From an uncultured archaeon (GTDB lineage Archaea; Asgardarchaeota; Thorarchaeia; Thorarchaeales; Thorarchaeaceae): a stretch of 57,059 nucleotides of DNA. The position numbers were made by a program, and so were the translations under genes. The stretch covers positions 1 through 57,059 of the forward strand of contig CAYYQL010000016.1 of NCBI GenBank assembly GCA_964473825.1, written 5' to 3'. The stretch's first letter is position 1; every line of letters starts with the position of its first letter. Shown piece by piece: positions 11,243 to 18,705 of the stretch. The notes under the pieces were generated by a model. It saw nothing but the letters and a program-made list of their open reading frames with translations. It was not told the origin of the DNA and did not search any database.

Positions 11243-12703
11243 ATGGAGATTAGTCGTACATCAATGAGGAACACAGAGTCCCTGATATACGACATTTTTG
11301 TCAGAACCACGAAAAGAGGCGTCGAGATATACACAATCGACTACGACGAGAAACTCAAAGTATTCTCTCCTGCCGGGAAAGAAACAAGTTCTCGAAAATG
11401 GACCTCCAAGGTCAGAACCGTAGCCATCGGTGATATCGATGCTGACGGTTATGATGATATTGTCGCAGGCACGAAAGACTGTGTAATAGTCATTGGCAAC
11501 AAAGGACAGGTCATCTATCAGATAGCAAAGTCTAGTCCGGTCATTACCTGTGATGCGGCCGATGTTGATGGCGACTATGCGGACGAGTTTGCAGCTGCCA
11601 TGCGGGACAACACGGTGTCCTTGTGGAACGATGACATGAAGCTGTTCACACGGTCGTTTCCGTCACCCGTTGTTTCTGTCAGACTAGAGAACATCACGGA
11701 TGATCCGGAATATGAGATAGTTGTAATGGAGCGCAGCGGCAATATCAGCATCCTATCTGCAGCTGGCTACCTGTTGAAGCAATTCACAGTTCCTTCGAAG
11801 ATACGAGTGGGTACCGTCCTGAACTTGGAGAACGACAAGCTGTTTGCCACAGGGGACAAATCGAACAATCTGAAGATTTGGGATATGGGAGGCCGATTAG
11901 TTCAGGAATTGAAACTCTCAGACCGCCCATTTGCCCTTGATGCAGATCGACATCCACGTAGTGACAGTCTTTACTTGGCCATTGGAACACGGCTTCCTGC
12001 CCTAGAGATATATCGTGTGAAGGGCGACACGATGTCTTCACTTACTCGACGAGTTATCGACGAAATATCTTCTACTAAGGAGACCGTCTACCGGCGAGCA
12101 ATTCGATGTGGTCATTGTGGTGCCCCAGTCTCGCCAGAGACTCCAAGCTGTGCGAATTGTGGGGCGATATTGGATGCATTACAGCCACAGCAGATTGATG
12201 AATTCATCAGTGAGACCATACTGTCTGTGACATCGCTCAATCCCCGCATCGCTTTGAGAGAACTTGACAGAGTCATCAGACGATCACTTCCCCGTCCCGC
12301 TGTCTACAACCTGCGCAGTCAGCTGCAGGAAATGGTCAGATGTGAGTTGATATCCGGCCACTTTGAAGATGATGGTAGAACCTTCGTCTTTACTGGCTTA
12401 AGAGGGGCTTTGGTTACCCCGTCCATGTCAAGACGCGATGCAAGGAAACTGCTATCCCGTGTGGTTTCTGGTAATAAGATCGAGCTCGGCGAGCTCCTTG
12501 ATATGAAGGCCGCACTGCAGGATCCTGACGTAGACCATGAGCTCGATGCGGCGACCATACGTAGAGCGCTTATTCTGCTGCGTGGCAAAGGACAGATTTC
12601 AGGCGAGTTCATTGACACGAAATCCTTCGCTTTCGAGTCAAAGGAAGAACTTGACAGAGTAGTTGATGAGATTATCGAGTTATTGAGTGCGCAAGGGAGT
12701 TAG
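11243..12703 (+). CDS. Cytoplasmic FG-GAP-like beta-propeller + Zn ribbon + two PCI-like winged-helix domains
   Basis: GDIDADGYDDIVAG, ADVDGDYADEFAAA, ENITDDPEYEIVV; WD-like LKIWD; CGHCG...CANCG; winged-helix ends ELISGHFEDDGRTFVF and GQISGEFIDTKSFAF; no signal peptide; start 11243 or 11264. Confidence 0.7.
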   Translation: MEISRTSMRNTESLIYDIFVRTTKRGVEIYTIDYDEKLKVFSPAGKETSSRKWTSKVRTVAIGDIDADGYDDIVAGTKDCVIVIGNKGQVIYQIAKSSPVITCDAADVDGDYADEFAAAMRDNTVSLWNDDMKLFTRSFPSPVVSVRLENITDDPEYEIVVMERSGNISILSAAGYLLKQFTVPSKIRVGTVLNLENDKLFATGDKSNNLKIWDMGGRLVQELKLSDRPFALDADRHPRSDSLYLAIGTRLPALEIYRVKGDTMSSLTRRVIDEISSTKETVYRRAIRCGHCGAPVSPETPSCANCGAILDALQPQQIDEFISETILSVTSLNPRIALRELDRVIRRSLPRPAVYNLRSQLQEMVRCELISGHFEDDGRTFVFTGLRGALVTPSMSRRDARKLLSRVVSGNKIELGELLDMKAALQDPDVDHELDAATIRRALILLRGKGQISGEFIDTKSFAFESKEELDRVVDEIIELLSAQGS

Positions 12704-12707
12704 GCAT

Positions 12708-16909: not shown

Positions 16910-18705
16910 TGTGGTCTGTTGAGGACGCTAAGTTCATCCATGGCGTTGGCCGTGGTGACTTGGACTTCCTCGACATCAATTCCGAAGGGAATCTCTGCCT
17001 GAAGGTTGATGACCGGCTCTTCCCTTTTCAAGACTTGATAGAACGTGTTCGTCGCAAGTACTCCTCCGAAGTGAGTTATACCTCTACCTTCACCCTCCGT
17101 GTCCCTCAATTCATAACAAAGAAGATCCGAAGATTGAACAACGCCTTCGAGTCCTATAGATTGAGAGAGGGTTACAAGGGTGAGTACAAACCTCTCTACC
17201 CCGTGAAGGTGAACCAGCAGGTAGATTGCATCAGGACTATCTTGAACTCGGACATCAGATACGGCTTGGAAGCAGGTTCGAAGACTGAAATGCTCCTGGT
17301 CGTAAGTGCTATCGGCGAAGACAAGAACCGGTTGATTTTTTGCAACGGAGTTAAAGACAGAGACTACTTCACCCTCTCCAAGAAAGCATCTGAAGCTGGA
17401 CACAATGTACTTGTCTGTCTCGAAAGCATTCCTGAAGTACATCTGGCTGTTGATTTCTTCGAACCCGGCGATATCGATTTGGCTCTCAGAGTCAAACCAT
17501 ACGTCAAGTCAAGCGGACACTGGCATCATTCAGGGGGAAGGTATTCGAAGTTCGGACTCTCCGTTCAGGATTTATTCGAAGTTACAGATATCCTCAGAGA
17601 GAACAGACTCCTTGATGATGTTCGGACAATCCATGCTCACATCGGCTCGCAACTGACCAATCTTGAAACAAACATGCATGACTTTGGGAAATACATGGCC
17701 GAAGTATTCTTCTCTCTCAGGGAGAGGGGCTACAGAGCGCTCGATACCATAGACTTGGGTGGTGGTATCCCGATTGATTACGAGAGTGTCTTCACGAAGG
17801 ATCCCATTGCAGTATACTTCAACACGGTTCTAAGAGCCATCCAGGATGTTTGTGAGCGGAAAGGGGCAGAACAACACCCGGACATCATGACCGAGGCGGG
17901 GAGAGCCATCACTGCACAGAGTTCGATGATACTCGTGGAAGTGATTGAAACCCGCCGCCTTCTGCCCGAGATTGACTTGTCGGACCCCCTCTTGGCTCGT
18001 TGGAGAGAGAAGATTGAGGCAGCACAAAGTGAAGATGATATTTACGCGATCTGGGGGGAAATCATTGAACCAGATACGCCTACGGGAGATTTAGACGAGT
18101 TGCATGAACGCGAGAAACTCGTCACTCTATTGAAGACAATCCTTAGAGAACGTATCGTACAAGAAGTTGTCCATGTGCCTGCGAATCTCTACGCTTGGAT
18201 CATGCAGCCCGACTATATTTCGATTGGGAATTTCAGTGTCTTCAACAGCTGTCTCGACCACGTCTTTGTTCAGCAGCACTTCCCTGTGATTCCTCTCTCT
18301 GGGCATGACAGGCATCCTGCAGCATTGGTTCGACTCGTGGACATGACATGTGACAGTGACGGGGAGATATCTCCCTTTGTTGTTAGACACACTCCTGATG
18401 AGCCAATACTTACCAATGATAGTCGATTCATTACGGGTTCGAGGAATAGAGTGATCACCGGCATACCTGTGGCAGATCCAGCCAAGGTCAGCTATTTTCT
18501 GATCGGCTTGACTGGTGCCTATCAGGATGTACTAGAGGCGGACCATAACCTCTTCGGTGACCTTCCGGATGTAGTACTTGATTTCAAGGAAGATGGAACT
18601 GTCAGCTTATCGTGGACATGTGGTGCGCAGCCCATGGGTTCAATGCTGGATGATGTTGGATTTGAAGACCAGAGTGATATAGATAGCCCCTACTTCCAGC
18701 ACTGA
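16906..18705 (+). CDS. speA: Biosynthetic arginine decarboxylase (PLP fold III)
   Basis: YPVKVNQQ (PLP Lys), GLEAGSKTE, CNGVKD, SGGRYSKFGL, HIGSQ, DLGGG, EAGRA, TCDSDG, GAYQDVL...HNLFG; ATGA overlap with the upstream gene. Confidence 0.88.
   Translation: MMWSVEDAKFIHGVGRGDLDFLDINSEGNLCLKVDDRLFPFQDLIERVRRKYSSEVSYTSTFTLRVPQFITKKIRRLNNAFESYRLREGYKGEYKPLYPVKVNQQVDCIRTILNSDIRYGLEAGSKTEMLLVVSAIGEDKNRLIFCNGVKDRDYFTLSKKASEAGHNVLVCLESIPEVHLAVDFFEPGDIDLALRVKPYVKSSGHWHHSGGRYSKFGLSVQDLFEVTDILRENRLLDDVRTIHAHIGSQLTNLETNMHDFGKYMAEVFFSLRERGYRALDTIDLGGGIPIDYESVFTKDPIAVYFNTVLRAIQDVCERKGAEQHPDIMTEAGRAITAQSSMILVEVIETRRLLPEIDLSDPLLARWREKIEAAQSEDDIYAIWGEIIEPDTPTGDLDELHEREKLVTLLKTILRERIVQEVVHVPANLYAWIMQPDYISIGNFSVFNSCLDHVFVQQHFPVIPLSGHDRHPAALVRLVDMTCDSDGEISPFVVRHTPDEPILTNDSRFITGSRNRVITGIPVADPAKVSYFLIGLTGAYQDVLEADHNLFGDLPDVVLDFKEDGTVSLSWTCGAQPMGSMLDDVGFEDQSDIDSPYFQH

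Follow-up and report, generated by a model that had tools for sequence, protein, structure and literature searches.

A stretch of 57,059 nucleotides from an uncultured Thorarchaeales archaeon (contig CAYYQL010000016.1, hereafter the window, the sixteenth contig, C16, of a genome with a size of 3.27 Mb and a completeness of 95.7%) carries four plus-strand genes at positions 11243-18705 that form a real and conserved module, apparently undescribed so far. The genes encode, in this order, a cytosolic propeller protein (g1), a transmembrane receptor (R1), a shorter, output-less paralogue of that receptor (R2) and a predicted biosynthetic arginine decarboxylase (SpeA). The reading that we prefer, and hold to be plausible if somewhat short of probable, is that the module is a kinase-free sensor of agmatine or polyamines, which works by protein docking and matches SpeA-based synthesis to the amine supply outside the cell. 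The four genes are as follows:

11243-12703, plus strand: g1, cytosolic adaptor of 486 amino acids (Pfam and AlphaFold model)
12708-15452, plus strand: R1, transmembrane receptor of 914 amino acids (Pfam, alignment and hydropathy)
15467-16909, plus strand: R2, output-less R1 paralogue of 480 amino acids (Pfam, alignment and hydropathy)
16906-18705, plus strand: speA, pyridoxal phosphate (PLP)-dependent biosynthetic arginine decarboxylase of 599 amino acids (NCBIfam and PDB alignment)

Gene order and conservation of the cluster

Reading of the sequence and its open reading frames (ORFs) places g1 4 nt before R1 and R1 14 nt before R2, and R2 and speA share an ATGA overlap, a spacing that would point to a single transcript from g1 to speA. 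The co-oriented genes, gaps, overlap and opposite-strand flanks from which the original prediction had deduced a signaling operon are all borne out by the coordinates. Single-protein scans of genome contigs returned a sole match, in a sister genome that is 94% identical; relatives beyond it were recovered by whole-genome and profile searches, the profile scans yielding Thorarchaeota and, at greater distance, Heimdall-, Hod-, Hermod- and Lokiarchaeia. We mapped the four proteins onto 40 retrieved loci and then examined the order of R1 and R2 in 80 further loci. The genes g1, R1, R2 and speA are colinear in about 16 genera of Thorarchaeota, and R2 lies immediately 3' of R1 in every one of the 65 further loci with enough flanking sequence. 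Across the phylum, R1 was found in 109 and SpeA in 108 of 400 genomes, and families in which they are patchy carry R1 and SpeA in the same genomes; for example, the four genomes out of 22 that have either gene in family f18 (G092, G094, G100 and G111) all have both.

The gene speA is linked to the receptors in at least six Asgard families (Thor, three Heimdall-type families, f5 and Hermod) in three arrangements, namely colinear, divergent or 6 kb apart. Linkage of g1 extends to five families, being upstream and colinear in Thor, downstream and colinear in f26, f9 and f27, and convergent in f18 and Hodarchaeum. The arrangements other than that of Thorarchaeota are:

f18 and Hodarchaeum: g1 convergent on R2, speA divergent from R1
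f20 and f14: R1, R2 and speA colinear, no g1
f5: speA divergent from R1
Hermod (f12): speA 6 kb away
Loki (f26), f9 and f27: R1, R2 and g1 colinear, no speA

A linkage that persists although order and strand change usually speaks for a functional tie, and the ties of both speA and the propeller gene to the receptors, first proposed from the window, recur in many other genomes and in several gene orders. R1-R2 is the core of the module; g1 and speA recur as its partners, each without depending on the other. A homologous trio of R1, R2 and propeller genes is present in the complete genome of Candidatus Lokiarchaeum ossiferum Loki-B35 (CP104013.1). Just upstream of R1, the g1-less families encode a small RING-H2 protein (f14) or an AbrB/MazE-type protein (f20).

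Two Cache receptors without an enzymatic output

A hydropathy scan found two transmembrane segments in R1, two in R2 and none in g1 and SpeA, which puts the Cache domains of both receptors outside the cell and the HAMP, TPR and vWA regions in the cytosol. R1 consists of a first transmembrane segment (residues 13-38), an extracellular dCache_1 domain (about 40-385), a second transmembrane segment (about 392-415), a HAMP-like region (420-470) and an arm comprising TPR (about 470-690), a helix (693-712), a vWA domain (716-880) and a conserved C-terminal tail. Its Pfam matches are dCache_1 (72.6 bits, cut-off 45), TPR_12 (63.7 bits) and VWA_2 (48.7 bits), and dCache_1 was matched in all 30 aligned R1 sequences. 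HAMP (PF00672) is undetected by Pfam in the R1 of the window and was detected in 12 of the 30 aligned orthologues (best E 2.3e-9); two positions of the region, P426 and E455, are invariant in the 30-sequence alignment. Equally invariant in all 30 are the residues of the metal-ion-dependent adhesion site (MIDAS) of the vWA domain, D724, S726, S728, T795 and D823. Public annotation of R1 is limited to 'tetratricopeptide repeat protein' or 'cache domain-containing protein'. Three segments of R1 are referred to below:

13362-13388, plus strand: R1 pocket segment Y219-D-P-N-S-E224-E-W226-Y227 (HMMER alignment to the PctA structures 5ltx and 9koo)
14784-14843, plus strand: R1 helix 693-712 (G-E-P-S-H697-E-I-R-L-Q-A-E-K-I-L-G...) at the TPR-vWA joint, predicted g1 docking site
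14877-14891, plus strand: vWA MIDAS motif D724-K-S726-G-S728, completed by T795 and D823

R2 has a first transmembrane segment (14-37), dCache_1 (65.9 bits, cut-off 45), a second transmembrane segment (389-417), HAMP (411-472; 24.4 bits, slightly below the cut-off of 25) and an acidic tail, DETEEEE. Since the same short architecture is retained across the phylum, R2 is not a truncation. Domain library scans (E up to 0.1) detected no kinase, methyl-accepting chemotaxis protein (MCP), cyclase, phosphatase, receiver, GGDEF/EAL or PP2C domain in g1, R1, R2 or SpeA, which bears out the earlier claim that the receptors are accompanied by no His kinase, MCP, cyclase or phosphatase output.

The extreme C-terminus of R1, QLEMGGTQVDF (15405-15449; E-V-[DE]-V-E-G-F elsewhere), follows the vWA domain and is kept in all families; it might act as a MIDAS ligand within the same molecule or as a further docking peptide. 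The acidic tail of R2 was considered as a MIDAS ligand as well and was dropped, since across families only its first two or three post-HAMP acidic residues are conserved. Four Thorarchaeota R1 orthologues (G023:C95, G344:C2, G346:C56 and G380:C1) each contain one in-frame stop (TAA, TGA or TAG), which could be assembly errors or mark recent pseudogenes.

Ligand pocket and its association with speA

In PctA-family receptors, Arg126 clamps the carboxylate of the ligand. HMMER alignment showed that R1 keeps Y121, W128, Y129, Y144 and D173 of the PctA motif and has Glu224 in place of R126. R2 has Asp at the R126 position and keeps the other five motif positions, so that neither receptor has the complete dCache_1AA motif (Y121, R126, W128, Y129, Y144, D173). 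In a survey of this pocket that took in 119 R1 frames, every R1 with speA in its locus had a residue other than Arg at the R126 position (Glu, Tyr, Phe, Gln, Trp or Ser), and the R1 proteins that retain Arg (those of the Loki family, the second copy in G100, L180 and L181) never adjoin speA. Loss of the Arg would fit a ligand without a carboxylate, and its acidic replacement would favor a ligand that bears a further positive group, such as agmatine or a diamine. In the amine-binding dCache_1AM receptors (PMC10589655), conservation of the amino-acid motif does not extend to the aromatic and positively charged positions with which it begins, and the amine-receptor motif includes an insertion with the R103-D133 pair of PctD; our comparison of R1 with dCache_1AM covers the positive position only.

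Variants of the receptor pair were encountered in several places. The second R1-R2 copy of Heimdall genome G100 (CP070760.1; L069:7066-14490) has an R2 whose C-terminus is fused to the FYVE/RING-like Zn module of f18-type g1 (BLASTP E 4e-16) and an R1 that keeps the canonical pocket Arg. This copy is divergent to genes for a class I/II aminotransferase and an AMP-binding ligase, which take the place that speA has beside the first copy. A Zn ribbon and HEAT repeats are found on the R2 of one Hermod genome. Three IMG/VR GVMAG contigs (binned giant-virus metagenome-assembled genomes, GC 28-31%) carry adjacent full-length R2-like (504-579 amino acids) and R1-like genes (895-977 amino acids; E 1e-119 to 1e-142 to the R1 profile), located as follows, in the order R2 then R1 or divergent:

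L202:937-5221
L204:4222-8625
L203:3663-8463

Neither a propeller gene nor speA was found on these three contigs, and the neighbors of the receptor pairs include a photolyase gene and one for an E2 ubiquitin-conjugating enzyme. The bins may represent viruses, DNA of their hosts or low-GC Asgard DNA that was wrongly binned.

Predicted docking of the propeller protein on R1

Complex prediction, in which residues 440-914 of R1 were paired with g1 and each partner had its own alignment, gave a score of 0.65, the best of three controls reaching 0.00; a score of 0.65 is attained by 58 of 80 solved complexes and 2 of 110 mismatched pairs, a calibration that is rough here given the use of own alignments. 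The runs share at least 55% of contacts, with partner pLDDT (predicted local distance difference test) values of at least 77. The model supports a docking in which R1 helix 693-712 sits on the top face of the propeller, and the predicted contact would involve inner-loop residues 12-16, 34-35, 55, 58, 78, 99, 121, 142 and 252 of g1, which belong to successive blades. Two independent observations fit the modeled interface. His697 of the helix is present in all R1 with a linked g1 and missing from all R1 without g1 in loci with enough flanking sequence, a pattern that needs at least two independent changes on the R1 tree; on the other side, the interface includes two g1 residues that are highly conserved in their family, Y16 without exception and Y34 at 96%. 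The original prediction had envisaged contact between the vWA domain and the propeller. A confident contact between the R1 arm and g1 was indeed obtained, although its site is the TPR-vWA helix and not the MIDAS face of the vWA domain: the model contains no confident contacts of the integrin propeller-MIDAS type to MIDAS residues.

A conserved propeller with a variable C-terminal module

The g1 protein comprises a seven-bladed FG-GAP/BBS-like propeller (residues 1-260), a CxxC-x10-CxxC Zn ribbon (about 286-309), a winged helix (about 313-389), a possible second winged helix (about 397-464) and a C-terminal helix. Pfam recognizes BBS2_Mid (31.4 bits, cut-off 27) and FG-GAP_3 (27.0 bits, cut-off 26.9) in it, and the matches to its Zn ribbon are below threshold. 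The AlphaFold model (pLDDT 79 overall and about 90 in the propeller) has 28 strands in residues 1-260, and its best Foldseek matches are BBS9 (first, E 5.7e-13), BBS1, WD40 and G-beta propellers. We considered whether g1 is a counterpart of the BBSome subunit BBS2 and rejected this, as the propeller alone matches and the Zn ribbon and winged helices replace the GAE, platform and C-terminal helical domains. The first winged helix resembles those of PCI, cullin, Orc and ESCRT-II proteins (Z 6.0-7.6, root mean square deviation 2.2-3.3 A over 64-81 residues), matches that, as far as the model goes, confirm the fold but not a function; the second is modeled at pLDDT 35-70. Foldseek with the g1 C-terminal model returned zero matches at E below 0.01, and in a protein-atlas feature search with this region all scores were 0.83 or less. 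Two of the domains that the original prediction had called need correction: the HAMP of R1 falls below Pfam detection and the second winged helix is of low confidence.

A word-index search from the single g1 sequence retrieved five proteins only, and a profile search for g1 relatives covered 1.8 billion representative proteins. Across families, conservation of g1 is limited to the propeller and the C-terminal module varies: it consists of a Zn ribbon and winged helices in Thor, a FYVE/RING-like finger in f18 and a short Zn ribbon in Loki and f9. In one relative (P0152, on a 5806-nt contig of Logan ERR10503122), the propeller is fused to TIR_2 (56.7 bits), indicating that the propeller adaptor is able to carry an NADase-type effector; the gene lies downstream of one for a 575-amino-acid HAMP-TPR-vWA protein without a Cache domain. 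Overall, it looks as if a constant receptor is combined with cytosolic effectors that can be exchanged. Another g1-like propeller, P0135 (L186:6122-9512), bears a PCI-type winged helix (PF01399, 23.2 bits) and has no receptors nearby. Its gene sits between those of an Arf/Ras-family GTPase and an SMCR8_C (longin/DENN-type) protein, and its position beside an Arf/Ras-family GTPase recalls the BBS1 propeller with ARL6.

SpeA and its C-terminal tail

SpeA aligns end to end with the structures 3nzq (E 6e-64), 3nzp (E 8e-61) and 3n2o and keeps the motifs YPVKVNQ (PLP-Lys), HAHIGSQ (HxHxGSQ), GGG and CDSDG; its NCBIfam scores are below cut-off for both NF003763 (350.6 bits, cut-off 369) and TIGR01273 (324.5 bits, cut-off 624). 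Archaea require agmatine for the agmatidine modification of tRNA-Ile and for polyamines. PdaD (PF01862) was found in none of 24 Thorarchaeota genomes and is present in most other families of the phylum, which leaves SpeA as the sole recognizable arginine decarboxylase of Thorarchaeota. The AdoMetDC family (PF02675), sought as a possible source of an alternative decarboxylase, and PdaD are both missing from the 95.7%-complete genome of the window, which has an agmatinase-family gene on contig 8. To judge by these genes, the recognizable polyamine route seems to end at agmatine and putrescine in this genome.

In genomes G003 and G006, g1, R1 and R2 are precisely missing between the same flanking genes and speA is retained, with a 59-codon remnant of g1 left in G003. 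Such retention makes the receptors an accessory layer on a retained enzyme. Genome G001, from the genus of the window, has speA (L104:1825-3612) among the same neighboring genes (the 522-amino-acid ORF and the metallo-beta-lactamase-fold, HhH-GPD and MGMT genes) and no g1, R1 or R2; this SpeA is merely 44% identical to that of the window, and its gene contains one in-frame TAG.

Comparison of SpeA C-termini revealed a short motif at the very end of the enzyme:

18676-18702, plus strand: SpeA C-terminal tail D-I-D-S-P-Y-F-Q-H, acidic-Pro-Tyr motif

The acidic-Pro-Tyr tail is present in 44 of 48 distinct receptor-linked SpeA tails, the remaining four being three copies of an f18/Hod variant, SYAKD(S/T)W, and one broken frame. 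Among receptor-less genomes, G006, G338, G051 (in both copies) and G052 have no such tail, G013 and G001 have it mutated to Ser-Tyr, and G139 has lost it. The tail may be a peptide that docks in the TPR groove of R1 or at its MIDAS.

Proposed mechanism and alternative explanations

In the pathway that we propose, the paralogous dCache_1 receptors R1 and R2 would most likely work as a hetero-oligomer, and their pockets, devoid of the carboxylate-clamping Arg, would bind a cationic amine, most simply agmatine or a derived polyamine. The signal would pass from the second transmembrane segment through HAMP to the cytosolic TPR-vWA arm of R1, which, on the evidence of its sequence, is enzyme-free and offers only protein-docking surfaces and a complete MIDAS. 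The helix between TPR and vWA is predicted to hold the top face of the g1 propeller, and g1 would bear the real output module, that is, the Zn ribbon and winged helices here and a RING/FYVE-like finger or TIR elsewhere. SpeA would be the controlled enzyme, either through its acidic-Pro-Tyr tail on R1 or through an effect of g1 on its expression, and the net effect would be to tune agmatine and polyamine synthesis to extracellular amines. The most specific version of this pathway, in which an Asgard heteromeric Cache amine receptor signals without a kinase to a BBS-like propeller adaptor with a swappable effector and SpeA is controlled through its tail, is tentative and, taken as a whole, rather doubtful; if true, it would amount to a receptor-adaptor-effector logic nearer to eukaryotic signaling than to bacterial two-component systems.

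Several observations weigh against a docking-based amine sensor that controls SpeA. The enzyme persists after deletion of g1, R1 and R2 in G003 and G006, which argues for its independence of the receptors, and its tail survives in the receptor-less genomes G003, G393 and G349. Four speA-linked families lack a linked g1, so that g1 is dispensable for the connection to speA, and the R1 pockets of f9 and f27 are acidic or Ser (Glu or Ser), yet neither family has a linked speA. Conservation of the g1 residues at the predicted interface, taken together, does not exceed that of the remaining propeller (0.58 vs 0.56), and 39% of randomly drawn residue sets reach the same level. The winged-helix match of g1 is middling (Z at most 7.6) and spans DNA-binding and scaffold types, and the related genomes on which the survey draws are non-independent samples.

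The same data can be read in other ways. Released agmatine made by SpeA might be sensed by R1 and R2 as an autoinducer, with g1 as the response factor of a quorum-like circuit. We consider this improbable: the linkage and pocket data are shared with the amine-sensor reading and a synthase adjoining its receptor is the usual autoinducer layout, but no exporter is conserved in the cluster among the surveyed loci, SpeA is a housekeeping enzyme because it is the sole recognizable arginine decarboxylase of Thorarchaeota, and speA outlasts deletion of the receptors. Besides, agmatine is a common fermentation product of neighboring organisms and hence a poor private signal. Distinctly improbable as well is that g1 is a winged-helix transcription factor for an unrelated regulon, sequestered at the membrane and released by the ligand, with speA merely co-transcribed. 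Its Zn ribbon and winged-helix fold and its predicted dock on R1 would suit such a factor, as would the small AbrB/MazE-type DNA-binding protein encoded upstream of R1 in the g1-less family f20; the winged-helix matches, however, are mostly to scaffold types (PCI, cullin, ESCRT-II and UFL1), no DNA-binding family was found by sequence in g1, and the pocket and tail patterns that track speA would be left unexplained.

A general receptor-adaptor-effector module with swappable effectors, akin to vWA/TPR/propeller conflict systems, in which SpeA is a regulated target or a co-inherited neighbor and does not physically touch the receptor, is unlikely in our judgment. It would account for the variable C-terminal module of g1, including the TIR_2 of P0152 beside a HAMP-TPR-vWA gene, and for the trio without speA in f26, f9 and f27, and vWA, TPR and propeller recur together in MoxR-vWA ternary conflict systems (PMC7159879). 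No MoxR ATPase is found near the cluster, however, and the linkage of speA survives three rearrangements, patchy families carry receptor and enzyme in the same genomes, and the link between speA and the receptors is tracked by the substitution in the pocket as well as by the decay of the SpeA tail. Least credible, to the point of being very improbable, is that the four genes are neighbors through shared descent and gene-order inertia without functional coupling. Most loci are from Thorarchaeota that are close relatives, and speA functions alone in several genomes, but the linkage extends to at least six families with differing orders and strands, patchy families again carry both genes in the same genomes, and gaps of 4 and 14 nt followed by an overlap indicate one transcript.

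Comparison with known systems

Cache receptors are the commonest extracellular sensors of prokaryotes, and all characterized ones known to us feed an enzyme or a chemotaxis array. R1 stands out in that its cytosolic side offers nothing but docking surfaces and in that it comes with an obligate, output-less twin and with a propeller protein as dedicated partner. Full-text literature searches found no paper joining Asgard, Cache and vWA and none on an Asgard receptor linked to arginine decarboxylase. The module is kept across the archaeal phylum closest to eukaryotes; if our reading is true, it would offer a first entry point to the way in which Asgard archaea sense their chemical environment, in which amines of syntrophic partners are plausible signals, provide an example of adaptor-based, kinase-free transmembrane signaling in prokaryotes and reveal a tie between regulation and agmatine.

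Eukaryotic alpha2delta/CACHD1, whose structure 8s7c was among the matches of the HMMER search with the R1 Cache domain, likewise unites Cache and vWA in a single protein, and an FG-GAP-type propeller is paired with a MIDAS vWA in the integrin alpha/beta head. In these proteins the vWA or propeller is extracellular, whereas it is cytoplasmic here, and unlike in integrins the contact predicted here is made by the helix before the vWA domain and not by the MIDAS face. Kinesin light chain TPRs bind W-acidic or Y-acidic tail motifs, and the combination of a TPR_12-type groove with a short acidic-aromatic tail (DIDSPYFQH of SpeA) is reminiscent of them, by analogy only. In Escherichia coli, the membrane sensor CadC controls the amino-acid decarboxylase of CadBA, and the product amine feeds back. 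As in our module, a membrane sensor is linked to a basic-amino-acid decarboxylase gene, and CadC senses the decarboxylation product outside the cytoplasm; however, CadC is one protein of the ToxR type, which contains a DNA-binding domain itself and lacks Cache, TPR, vWA and propeller, and CadBA is an inducible acid-stress decarboxylase with an antiporter, in contrast to the biosynthetic SpeA. A role in acid resistance of the AdiA/AdiC type was considered and rejected, as the cluster has no conserved antiporter and its enzyme belongs to the biosynthetic SpeA type.

With other dCache_1 receptors (PctA/B/C, PctD and other dCache_1AM domains; PMC10589655), R1 and R2 share the double-Cache fold, the pocket framework and two transmembrane segments followed by a HAMP or HAMP-like region. 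They differ in having Glu or Asp for the clamping Arg, a TPR-vWA docking arm in R1 rather than an MCP, kinase, cyclase or phosphatase, and an obligate gene pairing with an output-less paralogue. RavA-ViaA is a vWA-containing system physically tied to the lysine decarboxylase LdcI (PMC7159879) and thus, like our module, combines a vWA system with a basic-amino-acid decarboxylase; it differs in that it needs the MoxR AAA+ ATPase RavA, is soluble and has no sensor domain, and the fold family of LdcI is another one. The MoxR-vWA ternary conflict systems include TPR and beta-propeller components (Kaur et al. 2020, PMC7159879) and resemble the module in their MIDAS vWA, TPR, beta-propeller and variable effector-like module, one g1 relative having a TIR; the module differs by its extracellular Cache sensor, the link to a housekeeping biosynthetic enzyme, its Asgard hosts and the lack of MoxR. 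Membership in these ternary systems was rejected, since AAA_3 matches in the genome lie on contigs C6, C49, C13 and C2 with none on the window contig C16, and no MoxR was found in the related loci.

Flanking genes and expression signals

The cluster is bordered on both sides by unrelated DNA-repair genes of the opposite strand, HhH-GPD and metallo-beta-lactamase-fold genes upstream and an MGMT-type gene downstream. The features that lie outside the four coding sequences are:

7744-9312, minus strand: 522-amino-acid ORF without a Pfam match
10265-11095, minus strand: HhH-GPD gene, upstream neighbor, opposite in strand to the operon
11212-11218, plus strand: TATA-box-like element TTTATAT, 25-31 nt before the g1 ATG (read from sequence)
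15453-15460, plus strand: Shine-Dalgarno-like site GAGGAGGG within the 14-nt gap between R1 and R2 (read from sequence)
18720-19091, minus strand: MGMT-type gene, downstream neighbor, opposite in strand to the operon

A scan for sigma-70 promoters and intrinsic terminators returned sites not above those of shuffled sequence, under a model that is not applicable to archaea. The position of TTTATAT would fit a leaderless archaeal transcript starting at g1, and GAGGAGGG before R2 may serve polycistronic translation. The 522-amino-acid ORF is 84% identical in the sister genome and, over its first 265 residues, 90% identical in G001.

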